Source of the DNA: a virus
Lineage: Duplodnaviria > Caudoviricetes
Length of the DNA: 64,000 bases
Strand: one strand, 5' to 3'
Virus record (IMG/VR): IMGVR_UViG_3300028591_000110
Coordinates: 1 to 64,000 of that record
Positions 25,563-54,682 of the stretch are shown piece after piece. Each line of letters begins with the position of its first letter. Within the stretch, counting starts at the first letter, position 1. Under the pieces are notes generated by a model, which worked only from the letters and a program-made list of their open reading frames with translations, ran no database searches and was not told the DNA's origin. The position numbers were made by a program, and so were the translations under genes.

Positions 25563-25638
25563 GCCGGCGTAGCTCAGATGGCAGAGCAGGGCATTTGTAA
25601 TGCTCAGGCCGGGGGTTCGAGTCCGTCCGCCGGCTCCA
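25563..25638 (+). tRNA. tRNA-Thr(UGU)
   Basis: Cloverleaf, loop TT-TGT-AA, GTTCGA, CCA. Confidence 0.92.
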
Positions 25639-25639
25639 T

Positions 25640-25713
25640 GCTGGCGTAGCACAAAGGTAATGCGGCGGTTTCGTAAGCCGTTGATGGCGGTTCGATTCCG
25701 CCCGCCAGCTCCA
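25640..25713 (+). tRNA. tRNA-Thr(CGU)
   Basis: Loop TT-CGT-AA, CCA. Confidence 0.9.
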
Positions 25714-25777
25714 AAAGCGCAAACAGCAACCGTTGTGAATGTTTGGCGCCATTTTTGCCAAGTTTTCATTGCGCTTT
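25714..25777 (+). ncRNA. Stem-ACAGCAA element A (hairpin cargo)
   Basis: AAAGCGC-AA-ACAGCAA...GCGCTTT. Confidence 0.65.
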
Positions 25778-25809
25778 GATTTTTTTATTCATAGCAAGCC
25801 ATAAAAGAC

Positions 25810-25885
25810 GGGGCTGTAGCTCAGTTGGGAGAGCATCTGCTTTGCAAGCAGGGGGTCTGGGGTTCGAGTCCCCATAGCTCCACCA
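25810..25885 (+). tRNA. tRNA-Ala(UGC)
   Basis: Loop TT-TGC-AA, G3-U70, CCA. Confidence 0.93.
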
Positions 25886-25891
25886 TTCTTC

Positions 25892-25967
25892 GGGCGTGTA
25901 GCTCAGATGGAAGAGCAGCAGACCTTTAATCTGTTGGTCGCGGGTTCAAGTCCCTCCACGCCCACCA
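25892..25967 (+). tRNA. tRNA-Lys(UUU) with C33
   Basis: GCAGA-CCTTTAA-TCTGT, CCA. Confidence 0.88.
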
Positions 25968-25972
25968 AGCGA

Positions 25973-26048
25973 CTGGGCGTAACTCAGATGGAAGAGTGCG
26001 AGATTTGGGATCTCGAAGCCGCGAGTTCGAGTCTCGCCGCTCAGACCA
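25973..26048 (+). tRNA. tRNA-Pro(UGG)
   Basis: Loop TT-TGG-GA, CCA. Confidence 0.9.
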
Positions 26049-26065
26049 AATAATTACAGAAGGGT

Positions 26066-26275
26066 GTGAATGTGTTGAACGACAAGTCCAGCAAAGCATC
26101 GTCAAGCTCAGGGATCGGATTTTGCGGTCTTCTGACGATTGCGTTTATCGTGCTGAAATTGCTCCATGTGATCGAATGGTCATGGGTGTGGGTTTTGGCG
26201 CCGATGTGGATTGGCCTTTTGATCGGGATGATTATTCTTGCGGTCGTCGTGGTCATTGCGCTGAAAGTCGATTAG
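26066..26275 (+). CDS. Small two-TM membrane protein (GIGF.GLLTI.FIVLKL..VI.WSW.WVLAP family)
   Basis: Recurrent phage membrane-protein pattern. Exact start uncertain. Confidence 0.75.
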   Translation: MNVLNDKSSKASSSSGIGFCGLLTIAFIVLKLLHVIEWSWVWVLAPMWIGLLIGMIILAVVVVIALKVD

Positions 26276-26294
26276 GGAGTGTCCTGGAGGATTC

Positions 26295-26474
26295 ATGAGT
26301 ATGAAACAGACAGATGTTCAGGAATGCACCGTGCGATGTGCGGAGTGTTCAAATCATGACATGACATTCACGTTCTCTGACGGGTATGAAGTAACGTGCG
26401 GATATCTGCTGCGGCATGGTAAAGCCAGAGGATGCCCTGCTGGTGATGAATGCAAGAGGTTTGAAGAAGGATAA
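26295..26474 (+). CDS. 59-aa Cys-rich protein
   Basis: GGAGG RBS and CAEC...CGY...GCPAGDEC. Below the ORF-track cutoff. Confidence 0.55.
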   Translation: MSMKQTDVQECTVRCAECSNHDMTFTFSDGYEVTCGYLLRHGKARGCPAGDECKRFEEG

Positions 26475-26574
26475 GCGAATTGAGTAGTGAGTAAAGATCC
26501 TCACAAAGCGTGCCGCAATGTACACCCATTCATAACAGAGACCGTACAACTCTTTGGATGGTGCGGCAGGGACT

Positions 26575-26651
26575 AGACGTATGGTGTAGCGGGAGCAAGC
26601 CCGATGGAGTGCCACGGGAGGGTGTAAGTTCGATTCTTACATGCGTTGACC
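26575..26651 (+). ncRNA. tRNA-like RNA with aberrant anticodon arm
   Basis: T-arm GTAAG-TTCGATT-CTTAC and acceptor GACGTA/TGCGTT. The CCCG/CGGG stem closes an 11-nt loop. Confidence 0.55.
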
Positions 26652-26850
26652 GAAAAGAAAATCTCTTAAAAGCGTGATGTGTGAAGTAACTGAGAAACGG
26701 CTTCGATGACTGAAGATTAAAAATGCCACTTGGTTGGGTTGCGCAGCCCGGTCAAGGCTCAGTTCCCATAGGTGTGAGACCTGTGGCTCAATTCCAAAAA
26801 GATCTGATCGTAGGACGCGATCATGATAATCAAAAGAATGTTCAAAGATC

Positions 26851-26905
26851 AGACGCGAACAGCAACTTTATGATGCAGGATATAGGATTTGCGTTTTTAG
26901 CGTCT
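26851..26905 (+). ncRNA. Stem-ACAGCAA element B (hairpin cargo)
   Basis: AGACGC-GA-ACAGCAA...GCGTCT. Confidence 0.65.
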
Positions 26906-26918
26906 AGCATTACACAAA

Positions 26919-27087
26919 AAGGCACGCACAGCAATCTTTTTAAAAAGAAGATATGTTTTGAACAATGAACGAACGAGATCAGGATCTGATCTGAGATGAC
27001 GGTGCCTGCACCGGAGCCTTTTATTCGATTCCGCGCGTAGCCCCGATTTGGCCGCGTGACGGTATCGCAACTTTCCTTTTGTGCCTT
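26919..27087 (+). ncRNA. Stem-ACAGCAA element C (about 145-nt multi-hairpin cargo)
   Basis: AAGGCAC-GC-ACAGCAA...GTGCCTT. Confidence 0.6.
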
Positions 27088-27095
27088 GATAATAA

Positions 27096-27171
27096 TGGTG
27101 GGTAGCTCAGTCGGTAGAGCCCCGGCCTGTTAAGTCGGTTGTCGTGGGTTCGAGTCCCACCCCATCAGCCA
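27096..27171 (+). tRNA. tRNA-Asn(GUU)
   Basis: Loop CT-GTT-AA, GCCA end. Confidence 0.92.
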
Positions 27172-27238
27172 AACCACATTTTAAGCGAAAAAGCTCGGCG
27201 GGCAGCTTCCAAACATGGTTTTACAACCGCCACGATAT

Positions 27239-27313
27239 TGCGGAGTGGAGGAGCGGTTTCCTTGTCGGCCTCATAAGCCGAAGACACGGGTTCGAATCCC
27301 GTCTCCGCAACCA
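27239..27313 (+). tRNA. tRNA-Met(CAU), initiator-like
   Basis: Loop CT-CAT-AA with fMet-like acceptor and D arm. Anticodon stem is TCGGC/GCCGA rather than three G-C pairs. Confidence 0.85.
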
Positions 27314-27435
27314 GGGGAGTGCGTGCGCTACACTTCAAAGCGACCCCGAAAACGGAAAAAGAAGTGTGACTTTTCGGAATAGGCGAGACCGATGACGCAA
27401 TGTGATAACAGCGCACAGCCGATAGACGGCTGTAT

Positions 27436-27512
27436 GGCCGGTTAGCTCAGCCGGTTAGAGCACTTGCCTTACAAGCAAGGGGGCGCAGGTTCGAGCCCTG
27501 CACCGGCCACCA
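27436..27512 (+). tRNA. tRNA-Val(UAC)
   Basis: Loop CT-TAC-AA, CCA. Confidence 0.93.
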
Positions 27513-27521
27513 ACTGAATAA

Positions 27522-27597
27522 GCGGGCGTGGTGTTTAATGGTAACATCCCGGCCTTCCAAGCCGGTGTTGCGGGTTCAAGTCCCGTTGCCCGTTCCA
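27522..27597 (+). tRNA. tRNA-Gly(UCC)
   Basis: Loop CT-TCC-AA, TCCA end. Confidence 0.92.
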
Positions 27598-27600
27598 CCA

Positions 27601-27683
27601 GGGCGAGTGATGAAATTGGCAGACATGTCGGATTTAGGTTCCGGTGCTTCGGCGTGCGGGTTCAAATCCCGCCTCGCCTACCA
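27601..27683 (+). tRNA. tRNA-Leu(UAG)
   Basis: Loop TT-TAG-GT, long variable arm, CCA. Confidence 0.92.
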
Positions 27684-27704
27684 AACACTTTTGCAATGAA
27701 AATG

Positions 27705-27765
27705 AGAGCGCTTGCAGCAACTTTTCTTGGAATAGACTTTTAATCTATAAACCCAAAGGCGCTCT
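27705..27765 (+). ncRNA. Stem-GCAGCAA element D carrying a Lys(UUU) anticodon stem-loop
   Basis: AGAGCGC-TT-GCAGCAA...ATAGA-CTTTTAA-TCTAT...GCGCTCT. Confidence 0.7.
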
Positions 27766-27772
27766 GGATTAT

Positions 27773-27857
27773 GGCGATGTGATGGAATCGGCAGACGTGT
27801 CTGACTCAAAATCAGATGCCGCAAGGCGTGTGGGTTCAAGTCCCACCATCGCCACCA
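27773..27857 (+). tRNA. tRNA-Leu(CAA)
   Basis: Loop CT-CAA-AA, long variable arm, CCA. Confidence 0.92.
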
Positions 27858-27879
27858 ATACTGCAAAGTAAGGAATTTT

Positions 27880-28296
27880 ATGACAAGGTTTCAGCAAAAC
27901 GGGCATGATTGCCGCGTGAAGGAGAAGCTTTCCACCGGGCAGACGATAGACATGTTTTTCGAGTGTATTGATGAATATAAAGGCACTCTCTATTACAATA
28001 TCTCTTTGTCTGTTTACTCGAAGCGAAAGCACGCTTACAAAAACGAAGACGAGAAGAAGATCACCGGGAAGAACCCGGTTGAAACCGTGTTGGCTGCCAG
28101 AAGGATCTTTTATGAAATTGAGGATCATATCATCGCCGAATGCAAAGCCGCAGGTCTGGATGTAGTGTTCGAGGTATTCTGGACAGACAAGCGAAGAAGA
28201 GATGCGTACTATAAGGCATTATCCAAGGATGGATATCGGTATGGTATGCGCGATGATGTGAAGTGCCTGGAAAAACGGGTATTTCATGATGAATGA
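27880..28296 (+). CDS. Hypothetical protein within the tRNA cluster
   Basis: AAGGA RBS, 138 aa. Confidence 0.7.
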   Translation: MTRFQQNGHDCRVKEKLSTGQTIDMFFECIDEYKGTLYYNISLSVYSKRKHAYKNEDEKKITGKNPVETVLAARRIFYEIEDHIIAECKAAGLDVVFEVFWTDKRRRDAYYKALSKDGYRYGMRDDVKCLEKRVFHDE

Positions 28297-28305
28297 ATCG
28301 ACGAT

Positions 28306-28384
28306 AAGTCTCACACAGCAATTTTCTTGGTAAAAACAAATGACTGCAAATCATATGTCGTGGTTCAAATCCACATTGAGGCTT
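28306..28384 (+). ncRNA. Stem-ACAGCAA element E carrying a Cys(GCA) tRNA body
   Basis: AAGTCTC-AC-ACAGCAA, ATGA-CTGCAAA-TCAT, T-arm GTGG-TTCAAAT-CCAC, closing GAGGCTT. No CCA. Confidence 0.7.
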
Positions 28385-28408
28385 GCTTGAAACATTTTTA
28401 TTCCTCCA

Positions 28409-28521
28409 AAGTCGCTGACAGCAATGATTTACTCCGGCCTCCGGAGAGTAGTTCAAGGGTAGAATATGCGCCTGATAATCGCAAGCTGCGGGTTCGAATC
28501 CCGCCTTAATAAATGCGACTT
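28409..28521 (+). ncRNA. Stem-ACAGCAA element F carrying an Ile(GAU) tRNA body
   Basis: AAGTCGC-TG-ACAGCAA, D arm TAGTTCAAGGGTAGAAT, loop CT-GAT-AA, T-arm GCGGG-TTCGAAT-CCCGC, closing GCGACTT. Confidence 0.7.
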
Positions 28522-28529
28522 GTTTATAT

Positions 28530-28606
28530 AGTTCGGTAGCGAAGATGGTTATCGCGCTGGCCTGTCACGCCAGAGATCGCGGGTTCGATCCCCGTCCGGA
28601 CTGCCA
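28530..28606 (+). tRNA. tRNA-Asp(GUC)
   Basis: Loop CT-GTC-AC, GCCA end. Confidence 0.92.
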
Positions 28607-28611
28607 AAAGT

Positions 28612-28898
28612 CAATCGGCGCGGCGATTAAGCTTGGTAAGCGAGGCAAAGTCTTTATATCATCTACTGTGGGGAGAATGTTAAATCCCGCCGAGTCGCGC
28701 CGATATGAACAGAGAGATTGCCGCAGAGTGGATGATGCGGGATAAAAATATCGACCATCCTCTATGGGTAGGGAGGCTGAAATGTTGTCGGCCACATAGA
28801 GTGAGTCCTAGGCCCCATGGCGCTAATGGAGCATGCGTGAATGGAGAAACTCGTTAATCGATGACACTCCTAAAAAGTGCCTGAAACGCTAGGCATTA
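28612..28898 (+). ncRNA. Unidentified structured RNA with probable pseudoknot
   Basis: ATCGGCGCGGC/GTCGCGCCGAT stem. Loop ATCATCTACTGTGG is complementary to the downstream CCGCAGAGTGGATGAT. Confidence 0.45.
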
Positions 28899-28901
28899 TA
28901 A

Positions 28902-28976
28902 TGGGGCGTCGCCAAGCGGTAAGGCACAGGACTTTGACTCCTGCATCCGCTGGTTCAAATCCAGCCGCCCCAGCCA
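28902..28976 (+). tRNA. tRNA-Gln(UUG)
   Basis: Loop CT-TTG-AC, GCCA end. Confidence 0.93.
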
Positions 28977-29081
28977 AAGGACAAGGCAAAGTCGGTAAAA
29001 CCCCTCGTGGGCGGTCTGTAGTGGTTAAGCGTCTTGCGGTAGTTTTCTGTTGATTCCGCAACGAAGCACAAAGAACAGATA

Positions 29082-29257
29082 GATGCGGTGGCGGAATAGA
29101 CCGGGTAAGACGCCGGGTGCTGAGATAGTCAGCGCCGCTGTATAGCGGAGGAATAGTAGACGCTTCAGGTGCTTGATGTCGCAAGGGTGCACACTTGAAA
29201 TAGCACAAGGGGTACAAAAATCGACATCCTGTAAGGTGCAAATCCTTACCCGCATTG
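29082..29257 (+). ncRNA. Oversized tRNA-like RNA (176 nt)
   Basis: Acceptor GATGCGG/CCGCATT, split D arm GGCGGAATA...GTAGACGC and T-arm GTAAGG-TGCAAAT-CCTTAC. Confidence 0.6.
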
Positions 29258-29262
29258 AATAT

Positions 29263-29338
29263 ATACCTCTGGTGTAATTGGAAACATACCGGTCTCCAAA
29301 ACCGGGAGATCGGGGTTCGAGTCCTCGGGGGTGTGCCA
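29263..29338 (+). tRNA. tRNA-Trp(CCA)
   Basis: Loop CT-CCA-AA, GCCA end. Confidence 0.88.
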
Positions 29339-29342
29339 ATAT

Positions 29343-29419
29343 GCTGCTCTCTTCTAACCGGCATAGGAAACCGGCCTCTCAAGCCGGAAATACGAGTTCG
29401 AGTCTCGTGAGCAGTACCA
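29343..29419 (+). tRNA. tRNA-Glu(CUC)
   Basis: Loop CT-CTC-AA, CCA. Confidence 0.88.
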
Positions 29420-29423
29420 CTAT

Positions 29424-29499
29424 GGCGCTGTAGTCGAGAGGGCTAAGACGCCGGCCCTTCAAGCCGGAGACGCGGGTTCGATTCCCGCCAGCGCTGCCA
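29424..29499 (+). tRNA. tRNA-Glu(UUC) with C33
   Basis: CCGGC-CCTTCAA-GCCGG, GCCA end. Confidence 0.88.
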
Positions 29500-29511
29500 A
29501 AGGAGATTTTT

Positions 29512-29715
29512 ATGGCTGACAGAATTGCAAGAAAGATTCCGGCAAGCGAGAGCGGCGCAGGGAATACGATTCATACAAAGAGCGGCAGAGTTTATCGGAT
29601 TACGATGAATCCGGACAAGCGGGTTCATACAATCTGGGAGGTCGTAGAAGGCGGCTTCCGGAAGATCGCAAGCGCGGATTCGCCGCTGAAGCTGCATAAG
29701 CATGTGCAGGAATAA
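29512..29715 (+). CDS. Small basic hypothetical protein
   Basis: AAAGGAG RBS. Confidence 0.65.
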   Translation: MADRIARKIPASESGAGNTIHTKSGRVYRITMNPDKRVHTIWEVVEGGFRKIASADSPLKLHKHVQE

Positions 29716-29718
29716 CAT

Positions 29719-29805
29719 GGGGGAGCGCCGGAGTTGGTGAGCCGGGGCGGTCTGTAAAACCGTTGCCGTTTGGCTGAGATGGTTCGAATCCATCCTCCCT
29801 CACCA
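29719..29805 (+). tRNA. tRNA-Tyr(GUA)
   Basis: Loop CT-GTA-AA, long variable arm, CCA. Confidence 0.9.
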
Positions 29806-29814
29806 TTGATATAT

Positions 29815-29899
29815 GCCGAGTGACGCAATCCGGCGATTGCACCGGTCTTGAAAACCGTGGGTACGAGAGTATGGGGATCGACACCTCCGCTCGGCGCCA
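29815..29899 (+). tRNA. tRNA-Ser(UGA), atypical T-loop ATCGACA
   Basis: Loop CT-TGA-AA, variable arm, GCCA end. Confidence 0.8.
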
Positions 29900-29904
29900 A
29901 TTAT

Positions 29905-29981
29905 GGGCGGTTAGCTCAGTTGGTAGAGCGCTTGGTTGAAGCCCAAGGCTTGCGGCGGTTCGATTCCGTCACTGCCCACCA
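29905..29981 (+). tRNA. tRNA-Phe(GAA) with G37
   Basis: CTTGG-TTGAAGC-CCAAG, CCA. Confidence 0.88.
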
Positions 29982-45123: not shown

Positions 45124-47856
45124 ATGATGGATGAAGAGCTGAAAGTAGTAGTAACCAGCGTACTGGAAGCGGATGAAGCTGCTTCAGCACAACGAATCAC
45201 AGGGCAGCTCCCGGCAATCTCTCAGCGCATCAATTCAAGCGGTAAGATTAAGGTGCAGGTTGAGCTTGACGACTCTACGGCCACTTCAAACGCAAAATCA
45301 TACGCACAAAAAGTAAGTCAGGCTGCAAAGTCTCAGCGCATCGGGCTTCCGATTGAGTTGGATCACTCATCAATTAACAAGATAAGATCGGAGCTAAAAA
45401 AACTTGGCGTTGATACCAACATCTCACAAGCTATGGTAAAAGAGCTTGACCAGATGTTTGCCAAGGTCAACCAAGTGAAGGGAACTTGGGGAGAGATCGC
45501 GAGCGAGGAAGAACATCTACTAAGCGTTTTGGTCGACGGTGTTGACCAGTTTGGCAGAAATGTTTCTGTTTTGCAGAGATATAATGCCGAAACGGGTGAT
45601 CTTGATAATAAAGTTACAAGCGTGACTTTGAATCTTGAAAAGATGCGTCAAGAGGACGAGCGAGCATCAAAAGCTGCAAAAACTGCGAATGACAATCGTA
45701 TTGCGGCTCTGCAAAAGCAGCTTGATATGCTGGAAAAGCTAAAGGCAAATTATTCCGGCAACGGAAAAGGCGATGCTGTAACCGGAACAGATCATCTGGA
45801 AACGCTATCAGCAAAATACCATGAAATCAAGCGGCAGATTCAGGATTTACAAAATGCGTCCGGCGCTTATGACAAGACCAGAAAGGTTGGAATTGACTCT
45901 GAGATTCGTGCACTTGAGCGCCTGATTACAGAGTACCAAAAAGCAGAACGAACGGCCACGGATCTTAGATCCAAAGATGTTACGACTGTAAAGACGGAGC
46001 AAGAGTTTAAGCTAAACGAGTTTGAATCGAAGCTGAAAACAGCAGGTATTCTTACTGATGAGCTAAAAGGAAAAATTACTTCTCTACGCAATGAGCTCGC
46101 TGGTGTTGGCGACTCTCAGGGAATGACGAAGTTCCTTGACAACTTCGGTGCAGCAAAGGCGCAGGCTTCGGCTACTGCGGCGGCAGAACAGTTCCGACAG
46201 AGCGTTGCCAGTGCAAATGCAGAGATGGCAGCAATGCCGTCTAACATCTCAGCGATGGAAGGGCGGATGCGTCAGCTATCAGCGCCGACAGACAACCTCA
46301 AAGCAAATGTTGCTGAGGTGCATCGCCTGATGGCGGAGTGGAATAAAGATCCGTCAGACGAAAAGAAGATTCAGATTTATGAGCAGATCAATGAAAAGCT
46401 GAAGCTGTGCAATTCTGAGATCACTCGTTTGAACCAAGCGCAAAACGCAGGTGTCAGAGACGTTAAGCTGATCCAAGGGCTCGACAAAGCGAAGGCCGAT
46501 CTGGCGACGATCCGCAGACAGTGGAGCGCGTTTACGAATGACAAGAGCTTGGAGCAAAAGTTCCAAGTTCTATCCAGGGGTTTGAACAACATCCGCAATC
46601 AAGCGGATTTGACGAAGTGGAATGCGCAGTTTGCAACGCTGAAATCGGAAATCAAGGCCGCAGGTCTGAATATGCAGTCGCTCGGCGATGTCATTAAGAA
46701 CAACCTCGCAAAAGTCGGACAATGGCTTGGCGCGACGACGATTATCTTCCGTGCAATCTCTACGATTAAATCAGCCGTAAATACGGTTATCGATATGGAC
46801 ACGGCGATGATCGATCTGCGGAAGGTTACGACCGGCACGGCAGCAGACTACGATAATTTCTATAAGTCTGCAAATGAGACCGCAAAGGCGCTCGGCGCTA
46901 CGACGGAAGAAGTTATCTCTCAAACTGCCGAGTGGGCCCGTTTGGGATACGCCATGAAAGACGCAGCAGAGCTCGCGAAGAACTCTGCTATTTTTGCGGC
47001 TGTATCCCCCGGCATGGGTCAAGAACTCGCAACAGATGGCTTGGTAAGTATTATCAAGGCGTTCGATGTTGACGTTGAAGACTCTATGGATGGGATTATT
47101 TCAAAGGTAAATGCGGTTGGTAACGCATTCGCCGTCAGCAACGCAGATATCGTGAACGCTCTCACGCGCTCATCTTCTGCGATGGCGGCAGCAAATAATA
47201 CCTTTGATGAAACCGTGGCGCTTGCTACGGCGGCAATTGAGATCACAAGAGACGCTGAGAGTGTGGGACAGGGCTTAAAGACCTTATCCATGAGAATCAG
47301 AGGCTATGACGAGGAGACTGAAGAATACTCCGAAGACGTGGCCATGCTTACTGGTAAGATCGCAGATCTTACCAAAACAGCAAAAACCCCCGGCGGCATC
47401 AGCCTATTTGAGCCGGGAGATCCCGACACTTATAAATCAACTTATGACATCCTGAAAGAAATCAGCGAGATCTGGGAAGATCTGACGGACAAGAACAGAG
47501 CAAGCCTCTTGGAAGCGCTGTTCGGAAAGCGTCAGGCTCAGATCGGCGCAGCGATCCTCTCCAACTTCGATCAGGCCAAGGCGTCCATCGAGACGATGGC
47601 GAACAGCGCCGGCAGCGCTGAGCGCGAGATGGAGAAGATCACGCAGAGCCTGGAATACCGCATCAATGCGCTCGGCCAGACATGGGTTGGCGTTGCGCAG
47701 AACCTATTCCAGACCGGCGATCTAAAGGGTGTAATATCTGTGCTTCAAGTTTTCTCCTCTGCTATTCAGGAGATTACCGATAAAGCCGGATTACTTGGAA
47801 CGATTGCAATTGGCGGCGGAATTACGTCGCTTGTGCAGGCGTTCAAAACTGTGGGT
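45124..47856 (+). CDS. Tape measure protein, exon 1 (911 codons)
   Basis: TP901-type core (IDMDTAMIDLRKVT, EWARLGY, GLKTLSMRIRG). Ends at the proposed 5' splice site. The unspliced ORF stops at 47931. Confidence 0.85.
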
Positions 47857-48211
47857 AGACCCAAAATGAGGGGTTTCATAAATGTGCCCACATACGCTCC
47901 GGTGGCGACACGGAACGAGCTTGCAGCGTAAGCGTGCTGCGGGCAAGGGAGCGTTGGCAAAATCACCGAACATGGCCTTTGCAGGCGATGGGTTTGAATC
48001 ATTCCCATCCGGGAACCCGAAAGGGAATCCGCAGCCAAGCTCGTTGTAAAAACTATATAGTTTTTCTAACGAGACGGTTCAGAGAGCATAATGGTGACGC
48101 GGCAGACCAGACGATACCGGTATCTGTCGTGATGGGGTGCTCCACATCGACGCAAAGCGATTTGCGAAAAATGATTATGCGGTTTGCCGCCGCACCCAAC
48201 AAAGGCAAAGA

Positions 48212-48238
48212 AAATGACGCCCAAGGCGGGCGCCATTT
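48212..48238 (-). terminator. Hairpin, probable terminator of the intron cargo gene
   Basis: AAATGACGCCC/GGGCGCCATTT with a T-run on the minus strand, 11 nt after the stop codon. Confidence 0.55.
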
Positions 48239-48249
48239 GTCAAGTAAAA

Positions 48250-48957
48250 TTAAAATTTACTGCCGCAGTTTTCACACTGCCAAGTCTTGCCGAGATCCCC
48301 GGCTCCGTATATTCCAAACAATGAAATTTTAGATGCTTTCTTTACGGTGGAAATCTTTTTTAGTTTTGTGGAATTACAGATCGGGCAATGAGGAATGTTC
48401 TTAGCGACATCTGCTTTTATTGGTTTTGGCTGCGCGGATCGTGGCACTTCATAAACAGGATGATTATAATCTTGAGGATTTGGCTTGACTTCTTTAACCG
48501 GTCTGTTTGGAAACGCAGCATTGCACTCTTCGATTCTGCTGAATAGTTCATTGACTGTATCTGTGTATTCCTTTGATTCTTTATCTCCAATATTGTATGG
48601 AATAACAAAGTGATTCAGAATGTATAGGTGCGCTCCAACTGTATAGTATCTGCCTCCGTTTGCGTAGTTTACTTCAACGCCAGGGTATTTTTCTCCATGG
48701 AACTGACATCCACAATCGGGGACGTATTCGTTTTTAGACAGATCAAAAGAAAAAGGCTTTGCGCATTTGATACAGACTTTCACTCTAGGGTTTGGAAGAG
48801 ACAGAGAATAGGGTTTAATTTGCCTTGTTAGTCTCGAAAATTCCTTAGATACTTCTTCCTTATCTACATAGTCTGATATCGGGAAACCGCATTTTGGGCA
48901 AGTTGAAGCTCGTGATGATACTTGGTTGTTGCATTCCGGGCAAGTGATCAGCGCCAT
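48250..48957 (-). CDS. Zinc-ribbon protein (intron cargo, AT-rich)
   Basis: CPEC..CPKC, CIKC, CPIC and CENC. GAGGTG RBS. No LAGLIDADG, GIY-YIG or HNH motif seen. Confidence 0.8.
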   Translation of the reverse strand: MALITCPECNNQVSSRASTCPKCGFPISDYVDKEEVSKEFSRLTRQIKPYSLSLPNPRVKVCIKCAKPFSFDLSKNEYVPDCGCQFHGEKYPGVEVNYANGGRYYTVGAHLYILNHFVIPYNIGDKESKEYTDTVNELFSRIEECNAAFPNRPVKEVKPNPQDYNHPVYEVPRSAQPKPIKADVAKNIPHCPICNSTKLKKISTVKKASKISLFGIYGAGDLGKTWQCENCGSKF

Positions 48958-48975
48958 ATTATCACCTCACATAAT

Positions 48976-49004
48976 ATTATACATTCATTTTAAGCTATGG
49001 GCAA
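48976..49004 (-). promoter_or_regulatory. Sigma-A promoter for the cargo gene
   Basis: TTGCCC-17 bp-TATAAT on the minus strand. Confidence 0.65.
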
Positions 49005-49027
49005 GCTTAAGTTGAATACCAGATGGG

Positions 49028-52000
49028 ACATTAAAAATTGGCGATTTTGTTGCATCGATGCAACAACTTAGCAACGTGTCGTTCTATGGCACAACACAAG
49101 ACACACTAAAATATATTTCCACTTTAAGCGGAATGACGCAGGCGCAACAGGCGGCTATTATTTCCTCGCACGGATATACTGCTGCTCAGGAGCAGGAAAT
49201 TCTTACAATGGTTCGCGCAATCGCTTCTTTGGAAGCTTATACGGTTGCCGAGATGGAGTCTGCTCTTGGAATCAAGAACGGAGAGCTGGCTAAAAAGCTT
49301 AATGTAGCTGCAACAGAGCAGCTAACACAGGCAAACATCAGACTGCTTTTGGCGGACACCAGTTTGTCTGCTGAGCAAAGAGCAGTTCTGCTAGGCATGG
49401 TTCAGGACAGCGCGGCAAAGCTGACCGCTGCTGCTGCAACTGACACTGCGACTGTCGCAAATGTCGGGTTTGCCGCATCTCTAAAAGCAGTATGGGTCGC
49501 TATGAAGGCGAATCCGATTGGCCTTCTTCTGACAGCGCTGCCGCTTCTTGTTATTGCAGTTAAGGCGTTTGTCAAAGCTATGAACGACGCGCATCCGTCT
49601 TTGGATACGCTGAAAGATGATCTTCAAGGTTTGAAGACAGAAGAGGAAGATCTTGAAACACAATCTTCCGAGCTCAACGATCGGATTAAGGAACTGCAAG
49701 ATCTGAAAAACGCCGGCACGATTACTCTTACAGAAGAGGAGGAGCTTGGAAGGCTCGAAAGAGAAAACGAACTGCTCAGGCAGCAAATCGAGCTCCAGAA
49801 AGAGCGTATTGCAGCACAGGAAGAAAAGGTTCAAGACAAGGCGGAAAGCAATGCGTCGGACTTTTTCAACCCGAACAAAGGCGGAAACGGTGTTTATAAT
49901 AACAACGCAACCGGTCTGAAGAATCTAATCGACAGATACAATCAGGCAAAAGAAGAGTTTAGCAAGGCAGTGAATGAAAAAGATACGGACAGCATGGAGA
50001 AGTGGCAGGATGTCATGGATTCCGCCAGAGAACGTATTGCAAGCATTCATTCACAGTTGGTCTCTATGCGAGGAGATCTCGGAGAGGATTCAGAATACCT
50101 CCCCAAAATTGACGAGCTTTTGGACAGCATTGCGGAGACGCTTGGACTATCGTCTGATGGGCTTCCGGACAGCTTAAAGGAAGCATACGAAGCGTACCAA
50201 AAGCTAAAGGATGCTGTTGGAGAAGAAGGCGCAAAGGGTTCAGATGAGTTCAAGACGCTTGAAGAGGAAGCAGGCAAGGCCGGTCTTACCGTCGAGCAGG
50301 TCACGGAGCGTATGGGCGAAAACAGCGCCGCTGCCGCTGCGGAGGCGGAAGAGCTTGAAAAGCTGAAAGCAAGCGCGACAAAGGCGACGGAAGCACTTGC
50401 AGGATTGCAGTCTCAGCAAAGCCTTGTTTCCGGCGCGGCCAAAGAACAGACTGAATCCGGATATCTGTCCGTTGAAACGTATGACAAGCTGATTGCCGCA
50501 TCTGCGGATTATGCATCCTGCATTGAGTACGAGAACGGCTCCATGCAGCTCAACACCGAAAAAGCGAAAGAGTTGACGGACGCAAAGTATGAGCTTCAGC
50601 TTCAGGAGATTGAGCTTGCAAAGGCGCAGGACGTTGCGAAGTGGAAAGAGAACGCTGCGGACATTGCAGATCTGGAGAGCAGATATGCGTCTCTGTCTGA
50701 TACGGAGCTTGCGCATTTAGCAAGCCTGCAAAGCGAAAATGGCGTTCTGGAGCAGAACATCCAGAAATACAACGTCATGAAGAGCGAGATCATCGAGCTA
50801 ACCGGCGCATACAAAGAATGGCTGGACGCGCAGAGCGGGCCGGAATCCGGCGACATGTATGATTCTCTGAAGACGGCGCAAAAGGCGATTGAGGAGGGGC
50901 TGGAGTCCGGCAAGACCGGAACGGCGAAATACAAGTCTGCTTTGAAGCTGCTTGTGCCGGAGGATGCGAGAGCGGATGCTGCTGCTTATATGCAGAACCT
51001 GCAGCGCTATATCTCAGACGATTCTGCCGGCGTAACCAACTTCATTCACGACATGGTAGCTGCCGGTCTGATGATCGAGGATGGCGACAATGTGCAGCTA
51101 GTGCCAGATACGGCGATCCAGGATATTTGCGAGAAGCTTCATATTACGCCGGAGATGGCAAAGGCGATTTTCGGAGAGCTTGAAGAATACGACTTCCATT
51201 TTGACTGGGAAGACGAGGACTTTGAGTTTAATACAAACACGAAGTCTTTGGATGAGATCAACGCCAAGATCGCGGAGACGAAGCAAAAGATTGAAGAGAT
51301 CAAGGCTTCCACGGTTGATCCGCAGGTCAAGCTGGAGCAGATTAACGAGGCTAAGCAGGAAATGCAGCAGCTCCTGCAGGACAAGGCTGCATTGGAAACG
51401 CCGACGGAAGCGGACGTTACGACGAACTCGGAGACCGCGAAGACGCAGCTGTCCGAGATCACAGGAACGCTGGATGAGATTGCGAAAAAGATTGACGAGG
51501 TTGCTGCAAAGCAAATCGGAGATCTCGGCGCAAGCTCGACCATTACGGCGCTGCAGAATGTGCTCAATAAGCTGAACGGAATCAACAGCATTAAGCTGAG
51601 AGACAAGACGTTCACGGTCACACAGATCACCAAAACAGATCCTGCCGGCGCCTATGGATTCCCGGCTGCCGGTGGTACACGCGGCGCACCCGGCGGCTTG
51701 ACGCTAGTTGGTGAGCTCGGGCCGGAGCTGGTTGTGTCCGGCAATCATTATTACACGGTAGGCGATCTCGGCGCTGAGTTTGTAAATCTCAAAGCCGGGG
51801 ATATCGTCTTTAATCATAGAGATACCGAAAAACTCTTGAAGGGCTTGACTGGCGTTCGTGGCACTGCGCTTGCGCAAGGCACGGCTATGGCCGGAAAGAT
51901 CAGCGGCGGCGGCAGTCTCAGCAACTTGCCGGGTTATAAAGTAACCAGCGCGAGCACGGTGCAATCGCAGACCACGGCGACGGTTAATGTCAATGTGAAA

Positions 52001-54682
52001 ACCGGCGCGAAGGATCTTGGTGAGGCGCTGGAAGATCAGCTAAAGACGCTGAAAGAAGAGCTGGACGACATTCTCGGCCAGTTTGATTTCAAGATCTTTA
52101 TGGCAGAGAAGCACAACGCATCTGCCAAGGAGATTATTGAAATCTATCGCAAAATGCAGGAAGCGGTTCATGCTCAGGCTGAGAAGTACCGCTCAATGGG
52201 CGTTGACGAGAACAACGAATACATCCGGGATCTGAAAAAGCAGTGGTGGGAATACGAAGAAGCGATCAAGGACGCTCGCAAGGACGAGTTTGATGAATGG
52301 ATGAAGGATTCCAAGTTTGCAATTGAAGCGATGGATCGCGATCACACCGGAACGGACAAGATGTTGGAATCCTGGCGGACGGTGCTGAGATCCATCAATG
52401 ATGAGATCGCATATTATACCGCTCGCGGATATGACATGGCTTCGGATGAGATTCAGGATCTGCTGAAAGAGGCGTGGGACGCCGAGAGCGAGATCGAGTC
52501 GATTCTTGAGCATACGTTGGATGCGGTCAACGACAGCATTGACAACATTCAGGATCTCTATAAGACATTAAAGGACGCTGCGGAAGAGTTTGCGGAAACC
52601 GGATACATCTCACTAGATGCGTATCAGGAAATCGTGAACATGGGCGTGGAATACATGGCGTATTTGCGCGACGAAAACGGTTATCTGCACATCAACCGCG
52701 AGCGCGTGGAAGCGGTGCTGACAGCGAAGACGCAGCAGATGGCGGTAGAGTCTGCTTTGAACTATGTTCGCCAGATCGGATTGGCGCTTGCCAACAACGA
52801 GACGGAGGAACTGAAGCGGCTGCTGGACGCTACGGAGCAGACGTCGGACGCAACATGGGGGCTCGTCTACGCGAACCTTGCGTTCCTGAATCTGACGGAC
52901 AAGCAGAGAGCTGCGGCGAGAAAGAACATTGACAGCCTGCGGGCGATTGCGGACAACGTATCTGCAAACATCTCCAAGAATCTGGATGACGAGGAAGGCG
53001 CCGAGTCGGTAACGGACACGAAGGATGCACTGGAAGACATTTTGGAGTTGACCAAGGATCTGATCAAGCATGAGCATGATCAGATGCTGGACGCTCTGGA
53101 CGATCAGCTTGACAAGTATAGAGAGATCATCGACGCGAAGAAGGAATCTTTGGCGTTGACTAAATCCGAATTGAGCTACAATAAGGATGTTCAGGACAGA
53201 ACGAAAGAGATCTCCCAGATTCAGGCGCGGATTGCGGCGCTTGAGCTGGATGACAGCAGGGAAGCGGCAATCGAACGCGCGAAGCTGATGGAAGAGCTCG
53301 CCGAAAAGCAGGCAGAGCTGGAAGAGAAGCAGCGCGATCATGCGTATGATCTGCAGATGGATTCTCTGGACAAGATGGCAGAGGCGCAGGAGAAGTCTGT
53401 GAACGAGCGCAAGGAGCAGATCGAGAACGAAACCAGCTCCGAGCAGAAGCTGTATGACCTCGCGATCAAAAAGATCTCCGAGGAATGGGATACGCTGGAA
53501 GATCAGCTTTTGGCCTGGAACACCGAATATGGCCGCAGCCTGAACAAAGACGTCATCGAAAAGTGGGACGCAGCCCGTGAAGCAGCGGAGCGTTACGGTA
53601 GCTTTGTGGAGGCGCTGAATCAGATGGGCATCGCCCCGGCTGAGGATGGCGAGAAGCCAACCTCCGATATTGTCGGCAAGGTGGAAGTTTATGACGACGC
53701 GGAGCGCATTCAGGAGATCGCGGAGCAGATGCAGAAGAACTCTCTGGAATGGTTCGGGGCGACAGATGATCGCCGCAGAGAACTGGAACGCGAGAACGAG
53801 AGCCTCAGCGCCGAGCTTGAGCAATACACCAATTACGGCATCTACAAAGAGAAGGGCACATGGTATCGAGCAGACGGAAGCACACTGTATTCACTTAATC
53901 CAGATGTAAAAGACGCCGCTATTACTGCCGCGATGAAACAGAACTCCATTGCATGGTGGACTGCCTCTCCAGAGGATCAGGCGAAGCTTGCAAAGAGGAA
54001 TGAGGATCTTGCCAGCTATTCAGACGGACGCATTACGAAGCAGAATAACCAGTGGGTTGGCGTGGATGGTAATCCGCTGTATGCCATTTCCAAGGAGGAA
54101 AAGGATGCGATTGCACATCAGCTTGTGGCGATGATGAAAGCCAACAGCGCGGCATGGTCTTCTGCAACCGATTCCGGGAAGCAGAATCTTTCCAACGAGA
54201 ATACAAGGCTGGCAAAGCTGCTGGAACAGCTTCTTGGGTCAAAGGTTACACGAGACAATGGCACTGGCACTTGGTACATTGACGGGAAGCCTCTTTATGA
54301 TGTTTACCACAAGGGCGGCGTCGTCGGCGGCGGAAATCTTCGCAGCCAGGAACGATTTGCGCTGCTGGAAGAGGGCGAGATGGTTCTTGCGGAAAAGCAC
54401 TTCAAGGCAATCGACCAGATGATTGAAATGATGAAGTTCATGAAATCGCGGTCTGCGGATTTGTCCAAGGTGTATTCTGAGACGAACCAAGTCAACGCCA
54501 TGAAGGAGCGCAGCGAGAAGATCAACAGCATCCTTCAAACCAGAACGTCAAAGTCTGAGGAGAGCGTTGTCAACGTGGACGCCTCCATTTCTGTAAGCGG
54601 AATCGTGGACGAGCACGTTCTGCAGGCGATCCGGAGACATCCTCGCGCAGTGGCAGAGGAAGTTGCCAAACAATTCGTATAA
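49028..54682 (+). CDS. Tape measure protein, exon 2 (1884 aa)
   Basis: Long coiled coil with ANPIG, LVGELGPELVV and YHKGGVV. No RBS before ATG 49058, and the frame is open from 49016. Confidence 0.85.
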   Translation, partial: TLKIGDFVASMQQLSNVSFYGTTQDTLKYISTLSGMTQAQQAAIISSHGYTAAQEQEILTMVRAIASLEAYTVAEMESALGIKNGELAKKLNVAATEQLTQANIRLLLADTSLSAEQRAVLLGMVQDSAAKLTAAAATDTATVANVGFAASLKAVWVAMKANPIGLLLTALPLLVIAVKAFVKAMNDAHPSLDTLKDDLQGLKTEEEDLETQSSELNDRIKELQDLKNAGTITLTEEEELGRLERENELLRQQIELQKERIAAQEEKVQDKAESNASDFFNPNKGGNGVYNNNATGLKNLIDRYNQAKEEFSKAVNEKDTDSMEKWQDVMDSARERIASIHSQLVSMRGDLGEDSEYLPKIDELLDSIAETLGLSSDGLPDSLKEAYEAYQKLKDAVGEEGAKGSDEFKTLEEEAGKAGLTVEQVTERMGENSAAAAAEAEELEKLKASATKATEALAGLQSQQSLVSGAAKEQTESGYLSVETYDKLIAASADYASCIEYENGSMQLNTEKAKELTDAKYELQLQEIELAKAQDVAKWKENAADIADLESRYASLSDTELAHLASLQSENGVLEQNIQKYNVMKSEIIELTGAYKEWLDAQSGPESGDMYDSLKTAQKAIEEGLESGKTGTAKYKSALKLLVPEDARADAAAYMQNLQRYISDDSAGVTNFIHDMVAAGLMIEDGDNVQLVPDTAIQDICEKLHITPEMAKAIFGELEEYDFHFDWEDEDFEFNTNTKSLDEINAKIAETKQKIEEIKASTVDPQVKLEQINEAKQEMQQLLQDKAALETPTEADVTTNSETAKTQLSEITGTLDEIAKKIDEVAAKQIGDLGASSTITALQNVLNKLNGINSIKLRDKTFTVTQITKTDPAGAYGFPAAGGTRGAPGGLTLVGELGPELVVSGNHYYTVGDLGAEFVNLKAGDIVFNHRDTEKLLKGLTGVRGTALAQGTAMAGKISGGGSLSNLPGYKVTSASTVQSQTTATVNVNVKTGAKDLGEALEDQLKTLKEELDDILGQFDFKIFMAEKHNASAKEIIEIYRKMQEAVHAQAEKYRSMGVDENNEYIRDLKKQWWEYEEAIKDARKDEFDEWMKDSKFAIEAMDRDHTGTDKMLESWRTVLRSINDEIAYYTARGYDMASDEIQDLLKEAWDAESEIESILEHTLDAVNDSIDNIQDLYKTLKDAAEEFAETGYISLDAYQEIVNMGVEYMAYLRDENGYLHINRERVEAVLTAKTQQMAVESALNYVRQIGLALANNETEELKRLLDATEQTSDATWGLVYANLAFLNLTDKQRAAARKNIDSLRAIADNVSANISKNLDDEEGAESVTDTKDALEDILELTKDLIKHEHDQMLDALDDQLDKYREIIDAKKESLALTKSELSYNKDVQDRTKEISQIQARIAALELDDSREAAIERAKLMEELAEKQAELEEKQRDHAYDLQMDSLDKMAEAQEKSVNERKEQIENETSSEQKLYDLAIKKISEEWDTLEDQLLAWNTEYGRSLNKDVIEKWDAAREAAERYGSFVEALNQMGIAPAEDGEKPTSDIVGKVEVYDDAERIQEIAEQMQKNSLEWFGATDDRRRELERENESLSAELEQYTNYGIYKEKGTWYRADGSTLYSLNPDVKDAAITAAMKQNSIAWWTASPEDQAKLAKRNEDLASYSDGRITKQNNQWVGVDGNPLYAISKEEKDAIAHQLVAMMKANSAAWSSATDSGKQNLSNENTRLAKLLEQLLGSKVTRDNGTGTWYIDGKPLYDVYHKGGVVGGGNLRSQERFALLEEGEMVLAEKHFKAIDQMIEMMKFMKSRSADLSKVYSETNQVNAMKERSEKINSILQTRTSKSEESVVNVDASISVSGIVDEHVLQAIRRHPRAVAEEVAKQFV

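Follow-up and report, generated by a model that had tools for sequence, protein, structure and literature searches.

A group I intron predicted in the tape-measure gene of an SPbeta-like gut phage, with a constant antisense zinc-ribbon gene and a variable cargo bay among its relatives

The DNA analyzed here, referred to as the window, is the first 64 kb (64,000 nucleotides) of a 135,563-bp virus record in IMG/VR (IMGVR_UViG_3300028591_000110), which CheckV rated complete. Our analysis led us to conclude, with considerable confidence, that positions 47857–49027 of the window are a group I intron that interrupts the tape-measure protein (TMP) gene, and whose removal restores an in-frame protein. 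That confidence extends to the best explanation as a whole, made up of a ribozyme core, a cargo loop, splicing as predicted from comparison of sequences, a zinc-ribbon gene that is constant across the intron family, and a variable bay that can hold other genes. By its predicted pairings, the intron is a divergent member of the group I class.

Two open reading frames (ORFs) on the + strand (45124–47931 and 49058–54682) flank one on the − strand (48957–48250). The upstream ORF as called is 935 amino acids long and ends in a 24-amino-acid, intron-encoded tail (RPKMRGF...NELAA), whilst TMP exon 1 itself (45124–47856, + strand) encodes 911 amino acids, with matches to PF10145 (E = 5.7e-22) and phrog_4211 (E = 1.3e-64). 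Exon 2 (49028–54682, + strand; 1884 amino acids) also matches phrog_4211 (E = 2.9e-31), and the two halves do so in collinear order. At its 5' end exon 2 has neither a start codon nor a ribosome-binding site (RBS), and the first ATG, at 49058, has no Shine-Dalgarno sequence. Joining 47856 to 49028 removes 1171 nucleotides and is in frame, giving ...KTVG^TLKIGDF... (the caret marks the junction), an exon joint of GTGGGT^ACATT and a product of 2795 amino acids. A first-pass annotation, made by reading the sequence without database searches, had predicted the same junction and a protein of about this length, and both were borne out. The ligated exons would read ...AAAACTGTGGGT joined to ACATTAAAAATT. 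More than 100 uninterrupted homologues of 2500–3000 amino acids align across the junction with at most one gap, and these are about 74% identical over exon 1 residues 560–911; intron-less alleles are also present in IMG/VR. The same intron-encoded tail (..VG^RPKM..PTY..TRNELAA) ends 92 of the 212 classified TMP clusters, and a search with the truncated exon-1 ORF matched mostly TMP fragments of about 1023 amino acids. This is a warning for annotation, as gene callers split such TMPs into two genes and the intron goes unflagged by Rfam.

Because Rfam gave no intron call, relatives were sought by searching with the truncated exon-1 ORF and then fetching the matching contigs. Introns at the same site were collected from contigs L003, L015 and L017–L024, from IMG/VR locus L042 and from prophages L057–L066 in metagenome-assembled genomes (MAGs). 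A blastn search of the phage collection gave no match. Seven IMG/VR loci retrieved with a loose core pattern were unrelated, having only the P4–P7 motif in common, and were not used.

The ribozyme core occupies the first ~350 nucleotides of the intron (47857–48209), and all of its elements lie on the + strand. P1 and its internal guide span 47851–47891: the exon end GTGGGT (47851–47856) pairs with GCCCAC (47886–47891), which places a U47856–G47886 wobble at the 5' splice site, and this U-G is kept in all copies. The adjoining guide AATGT (47881–47885) pairs as P10 with the ACATT of exon 2 (49028–49032), which follows the terminal G49027 at the 3' splice site (49027–49032). An inner hairpin of the P1 region (47857–47876) is followed by P2 (47894–47900 with 47948–47954), P2.1 (47919–47927 with 47936–47944), P3 (47963–47967 with 48093–48097), two extra hairpins between P3 and P4 (47975–47986 and 47987–48009), P4/P5 (48010–48031), P6 (48033–48079), P7 (48082–48088 with 48138–48143), P8 (48098–48131), a P9 hairpin with the GNRA-type loop GCGA (48151–48166) and a P9.1-like pseudoknot (48178–48209). 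P7 is the variant GAGCA/TGCTC, in which G48084 and A48085–A48088 pair with U48138–C48142, G48082 pairs with C48143 and A48083 is bulged.

The structure from P1 to P8, including P2.1 and the two P3–P4 hairpins, was written on a six-sequence alignment (A2). In this model 98.2% of cells are paired and 26 of the 76 pairs show compensatory changes; when the partners were slid by 1–3 columns as a control, only 38–46% were paired. Four of the five pairs of P3, which is pseudoknotted with P7, are compensatory, P6 alternates between CC/GG, GG/CC and CG/CG among relatives, and P7 shows C-G to U-A covariation. P1 is invariant in the six-sequence set, and further copies supply compensatory changes in it: GUGCGU/GCGCAC (L021), GCGGGU/GCCCGC (L022 and L042) and CACGGGU/GCCCGUG (L059). 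P10 occurs in nine guide/exon combinations, all of them complementary, directly after the terminal G and in frame; these are the window's own AAUGU/ACAUU and AAUGU/GCAUU, AUUGC/GCAAU, AUUGU/ACAAU, AUUGU/ACAGU, GAUGU/GCAUC, GCUGU/ACAGC, ACUGC/GCAGU and AAUUGC/GCAAUU. Across 12 same-site copies, P1 and P10 change together with the local exon ends. Covariation was seen in P1, P2, P3, P6, P7, P8 and P10, and we take this as strong comparative evidence that the ribozyme would be functional with these exact splice sites. The guide, the U-G wobble, G49027, and P3 with the variant P7 were all named in the first-pass annotation, and each has held up under this comparison.

Close to the 3' splice site there is an intron-terminal hairpin (48989–49011, + strand), placed 12–25 nucleotides before the splice site in 11/11 complete introns. 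In the complete introns, the loop of this hairpin can base-pair with the single-stranded linker of the core pseudoknot, as UGGUC/GACCA in most copies, UGGG/CCCA in the window (48998–49001 with 48195–48198) and in L003, and UGAUC/GAUCG in L042; two positions of this helix have changed on both sides. It is therefore probable that the hairpin loop pairs back to the core and closes the cargo loop. Such a long-range closing helix, if real, would draw the distant 3' splice site in towards the core.

The cargo loop of the window copy contains a single antisense unit, for which the first-pass annotation had listed an AT-rich composition, a sigma-A promoter, an RBS, a zinc-ribbon gene and a terminator. 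All of these were found. On the − strand, the sigma-A-type promoter (49004–48976) has a −35 TTGCCC at 49004–48999, a spacer of 17 and a −10 TATAAT at 48981–48976, and is followed by the RBS GAGGTGA (48968–48962), by the cargo gene, P0001 (48250–48957; 235 amino acids with three zinc-binding modules), and by an intrinsic terminator (48212–48238) with a 12-bp stem and then a T-run, a region that also gives a weak match to suhB/mmgR-like terminators. Comparable promoters precede 7/10 homologous intron genes. An extended −10 form was rejected, as TG directly abuts TATAAT instead of forming TGnTATAAT. The guanine-plus-cytosine (GC) content of the unit is 40.8%, against ~50% in the flanks. The cargo gene thus has the attributes of a moron, namely its own promoter and terminator and a GC content unlike its surroundings, and the unit could be expressed independently of late transcription.

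It had also been suggested that the antisense transcript regulates splicing and hence tail assembly. Transcription of the cargo does converge on late TMP transcription, and in the window copy the −35 hexamer overlaps the 3' hairpin loop. However, the predicted antisense RNA, running from ~48970 to 48212, would be complementary only to the cargo loop and overlaps neither the ribozyme core, the 3' hairpin nor either splice site, and most relatives have a −35 element that lies apart from the hairpin. We consider it improbable that either the transcript or its protein acts in this way, and the suggestion was not sustained.

Several results weigh against our interpretation of the interval as a working intron with an expressed cargo gene. 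Rfam at gathering score, a threshold for detection and not a structural criterion, reported no intron in the window or in nine relatives' loci. In E-value mode, the search with a group I model that the first-pass annotation had envisaged did give a partial match to RF00028 at 48008–48085 (P4–P6 and J6-7; model positions 60–145), but at 16.8 bits (E = 0.24) it falls below the gathering cut-off of 50 bits, which no same-site relative reaches. A pair of hairpins between P3 and P4 is atypical of the group I class, and is probably the reason for the Rfam miss. Of the contigs that map on 46500–50500 from four RNA-labelled runs, in which DNA carry-over is possible, none joins the exons; the matches, short and exact, fall on both exons, the ribozyme and the cargo, and one of them runs across the 3' junction in its unspliced form. 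For the closing helix, a crude shuffle test of loop-core complementarity gave no significant difference (own mean 6 bp, shuffled 4.9), and because this test does not discriminate, the case for the helix is made from position-specific co-variation. The promoter is a consensus match, in a region where a scan found 6 promoter-like sites against 2.5 expected; because of this excess, its assignment is based on position and on conservation in relatives. Finally, comparison of P0001 with Pfam, PHROGs, NCBIfam, PDB profiles and the ESM Atlas returned nothing beyond zinc ribbons.

Those Rfam scores and the lack of an exon-exon joint in the RNA-run contigs would both be in keeping with a dead ribozyme, the TMP being made as two polypeptides or the phage being defective. 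Against this, all core helices have been maintained by compensatory changes, P1 and P10 follow the exon sequences, exon 2 lacks the signals at its 5' end that separate translation would call for, and hundreds of gene clusters and complete phage genomes of ~130 kb keep the arrangement. A dead ribozyme is therefore very unlikely. We infer splicing itself from these sequence comparisons: if the late TMP transcript splices itself, it would lose all 1171 nucleotides and again encode the 2795-amino-acid protein. Because the intron would be removed in this way, DNA parked in its loop would not damage an essential virion gene.

We then examined how the content of that loop compares among copies of the intron. 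A gene with the zinc-ribbon module is found in every copy with enough sequence, comprising 12 TMP loci and 6 MAG prophages, at least 8 of which were chosen without reference to this gene. It is always antisense and always adjoins the 3' splice site. As it is present in all 18 copies, it is best regarded as a constant resident and not as an exchangeable passenger. The space between this gene and the core is a variable bay. The bay is empty in the window, L003 and L017, the window copy representing the minimal form, and L015 and L042 have a small antisense ORF in it. In L020 it contains sense-strand ORFs of 84, 335 and 84 amino acids, and ORFs of 171 and 335 amino acids were called in L019. A gene for a retropepsin-like aspartyl protease (PF13650/PF13975) lies beside the zinc-ribbon gene, on either strand, in L019 (14005–14520), L022 (11933–12442), L023 (8519–8941) and L024 (11047–11517). 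The bay of L022 also contains two Panacea-domain genes and that of L023 other ORFs, whilst L024 contains a complete Septu system (PtuA, E = 1e-135; PtuB, E = 6e-47) in an intron of 4.35 kb in which P1, P10 and the closing-helix elements are intact. Introns of relatives reach 4.4 kb and more. L021 was at one point a candidate for a cargo-less intron, and was rejected as its gap is a scaffold run of N inside the zinc-ribbon gene. The comparison of related phages for the same intron with different cargo, proposed in the first-pass annotation, thus revealed varied bay genes at one site. Its picture of a landing pad for exchangeable moron or defence genes fits the bay, with Septu in L024, Panacea in L022 and further ORFs in L019, L020, L023 and L042, but does not fit the zinc-ribbon gene, which is constant.

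Comparison with L003 gave a view of how the region has evolved. Exon 1 is 92–99% identical between the two, falling to 68% in the 150 nucleotides before the junction. The junction, the ribozyme core, the terminator and the last ~50 codons of the cargo gene are 98–99% identical, and the rest of the cargo gene, the promoter, the 3' splice site and the first 1.1 kb of exon 2 only 37–64% (mostly 45–50%), with identity returning to 88–95% beyond that point. On this alignment the window and L003 are mosaic, with breakpoints inside the cargo gene. The TMP flanks at 47700–47845 (68% nucleotide identity) and 49028–50165 (~45%) diverge far more from the closest relative than the rest does (88–99%), and for this reason we place the intron in a hypervariable island of the TMP gene.

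The history of gain and loss was followed with a quick IQ-TREE analysis of an exon-1 segment in 82 rows (59 intron-less and 23 intron-bearing). The intron label requires 11 changes on this tree, and the well-supported branches force at least 8 changes, some of them between near-identical alleles. In intron-bearing alleles the last ~8 exon bases are CTGTGGGT or a close, P1-compatible variant, and intron-less alleles differ at these last exon codons. The tree and alignment indicate that the intron is gained or lost often. This could come from the resident protein or from ordinary recombination.

The resident protein has, in order, an N-terminal zinc ribbon that lies just below the Pfam cut-offs, a second Cys4 site, helices, a disordered linker and a C-terminal zinc ribbon; the mean pLDDT (per-residue model confidence) of its AlphaFold model is 82.8. 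The C-terminal module is 48 amino acids long (window 48253–48396), with the consensus CPIC.S..L.KIS..KKA.K...FG.FGAGD.GKTW.C..CGSKF, and is 70–80% identical across proteins with unrelated N-termini, some of them membrane-spanning. The G-x4-GKT in this module (FGAGDLGKT) is in a low-confidence loop. A Walker A reading of it was treated as coincidence, as it sits in the 48-amino-acid zinc ribbon. The segment 48228–48969 recurs as a free-standing copy, at 91% nucleotide identity, in L005–L007, and the neighbor of the free-standing copy in a related phage is only 69% identical to its counterpart in the window genome. Another member of the P0001 family stands alone near a YonO-type polymerase gene. 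An IMG/VR search with the cargo protein gave no match.

Two accounts of P0001 carry similar weight. In the first, which we hold tentatively, it is an intron mobility factor, either a new homing endonuclease or a DNA-targeting protein that acts on intron-less TMP alleles; by cutting or marking such alleles it would cause intron and cargo to be copied in during co-infection. P0001 is the sole gene found in all intron copies, and its position and orientation are fixed across deep divergence. The repeated changes of intron state fit this account, and the shared exon bases of intron-bearing alleles resemble co-conversion. Free-standing members of the family in related phages recall free-standing homing endonuclease genes, and a conserved module joined to variable parts resembles modular homing enzymes. 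However, no known homing endonuclease signature (LAGLIDADG, GIY-YIG, HNH, His-Cys box, PD-(D/E)xK or EDxHD) was found in P0001 with Pfam, PHROGs, NCBIfam or PDB sequence profiles. Nor was a nuclease fold detected: Foldseek of the model against PDB and BFVD gave nothing at E ≤ 0.001, and VIA-align recovered zinc ribbons only, with a best Z of 3.1. The family has no invariant His and few invariant acidic residues, the C-terminal module is also found on unrelated N-termini, membrane-spanning ones among them, and ordinary recombination between mosaic phages could equally scatter the intron. The first-pass annotation had called the cargo a non-endonuclease gene, which agrees with the lack of any detected nuclease family or fold; the scattered distribution of the intron nevertheless calls for some means of spread, and the label is a tentative one.

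The second account, which is plausible although somewhat short of an even chance, takes P0001 to be a moron-type accessory gene, for host takeover, exclusion, defence or counter-defence, without a role in mobility. The gene would then be constant only as the first passenger, inherited with the intron. Its own promoter and terminator and its lower GC content are as expected for such a gene, and so would be its predicted expression independently of the late operon. In relatives, its neighbors in the same bay are defence or toxin-antitoxin-type genes, its C-terminal module is common to many small phage proteins with varied N-termini, and free-standing copies occur in other genome regions. On the other hand, PADLOC gave no match for P0001, and if the gene were a dispensable passenger, some of the 18 intron copies should lack it, yet it is present in all.

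If P0001 does act in mobility, the family may be seen as a mobile safe harbor, in which a ribozyme and a new class of zinc-ribbon mobility protein would allow defence or accessory cassettes of several kb (such as Septu and Panacea toxin-antitoxin) to be stored in an essential tail gene of gut phages, and to spread by way of it, without harm to that gene. We offer this as a speculative proposal, more doubtful than otherwise.

Two further interruptions of TMP genes were observed. In a MAG prophage, L057:3929–5662 is a further ~1.7-kb interruption of TMP exon 1, near residue 718, which may be a second intron or an insertion. In a distant TMP, the equivalent codon (..KNIG^) is the site of a group I-like element of another kind, L052:8609–9876; it has the same GAGCA/UGCUC P7, is otherwise unlike the window intron, and carries a small antisense gene for a membrane protein. 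Further truncated TMPs break off at ..KN(V/I)G^R.K.., so this codon may be a recurrent intron site.

Group I introns of phages are usually regarded as vehicles for sense-strand homing endonucleases or as relics without cargo. In the T4 nrdD (sunY) and td introns, a long peripheral loop with an ORF lies between the core and the 3' splice site; the ORFs have their own expression signals, lie on the sense strand and encode GIY-YIG or HNH homing endonucleases, and P10 together with peripheral pairings selects the distant 3' splice site. The window intron is alike in having its core split from the 3' splice site by an ORF loop with its own expression signals. It differs in that the ORF is antisense and has no nuclease signature, and in that, in relatives, unrelated genes occupy the loop beside it. 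IStrons (CdISt1, BcISt1), which join a group I ribozyme to an IS200/605 element, likewise have a 5' ribozyme followed on the 3' side by kilobases of non-endonuclease cargo, and splicing masks the insertion in a host gene. In contrast to their TnpA/TnpB cargo, no transposase domain was found in P0001 with Pfam or PHROGs, and the window intron has an antisense, self-promoted cargo and an insertion fixed at one TMP codon. A separate IStron-like unit was observed just upstream of the TMP gene in L020 (8050–9790), with a canonical group I intron (RF00028, 71.9 bits) and then a TnpB-type gene (OrfB_IS605) and a RAGATH-18 RNA; the unit stands where a YomN-family gene is usually called.

Phage genes, those for tape measures among them, are already known to contain group I introns. 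Prophages of the Bacillus cereus group were described as having TMP-IVS1, IVS2 and IVS3 in their tape-measure genes (Tourasse and Kolsto 2008, PMC2504315). Like the present family, these lie inside prophage TMP genes, have guides adapted to the local exon and are patchy among phages, but they are of IA1/IA2 types, with or without homing endonuclease remnants, and no opposite-strand gene or multi-gene cargo was reported for them (PMC2504315). The family described here differs in its two P3–P4 hairpins, in scoring below the Rfam cut-off and in always having the antisense zinc-ribbon gene. Nuclear ribosomal DNA group I introns hold antisense homing endonuclease genes of the His-Cys box type, and so share a protein gene opposite to the intron RNA strand (PMC9548176); the window intron, in contrast, is in a bacterial virus and in a protein-coding host gene, and has no His-Cys box. 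The P2/P4 defence hotspots and morons are similar in offering a fixed slot with conserved flanks and varying, self-promoted defence or accessory genes (bioRxiv 10.1101/2021.01.21.427644), whereas the slot described here is inside a self-splicing-type intron of an essential structural gene and not between genes. A literature search found no paper on defence cargo or on such zinc-ribbon genes in group I introns, which is not proof of novelty.

The source virus is an SPbeta-like phage from the ruminant gut. Tail genes of its relatives include the SPbeta-type Pfam families YomN, YomU, YomW, YomX, YonB and YonD, and the sequencing runs containing window DNA are sheep and bovine gut metagenomes. The most conserved 21-mer of the ribozyme is present in MAGs labelled Oscillospiraceae, Acutalibacteraceae, Oscillibacter and Ca. 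Pelethomonas, and because it occurs in these, the host is probably a gut member of the Oscillospirales, an assignment made through MAG binning. Elsewhere in the window there is a cluster of 18 tRNA genes (25563–29978) and a match to 6A RNA (RF02925) at 26800–26848.

What distinguishes this intron family is that it is abundant in SPbeta-like gut phages and in prophages of Oscillospirales-type MAGs, that it always has an opposite-strand, self-promoted zinc-ribbon gene without a recognized fold match, and that its peripheral loop is a variable slot in which other genes, a complete Septu system among them, can take up as much as 4 kb and more. If the predicted splicing is true, an essential virion gene would serve as a protected parking place for defence genes, and ribozymes would tolerate very large cargo transcribed both ways. 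The family also offers a candidate for a new mobility or host-interaction protein.

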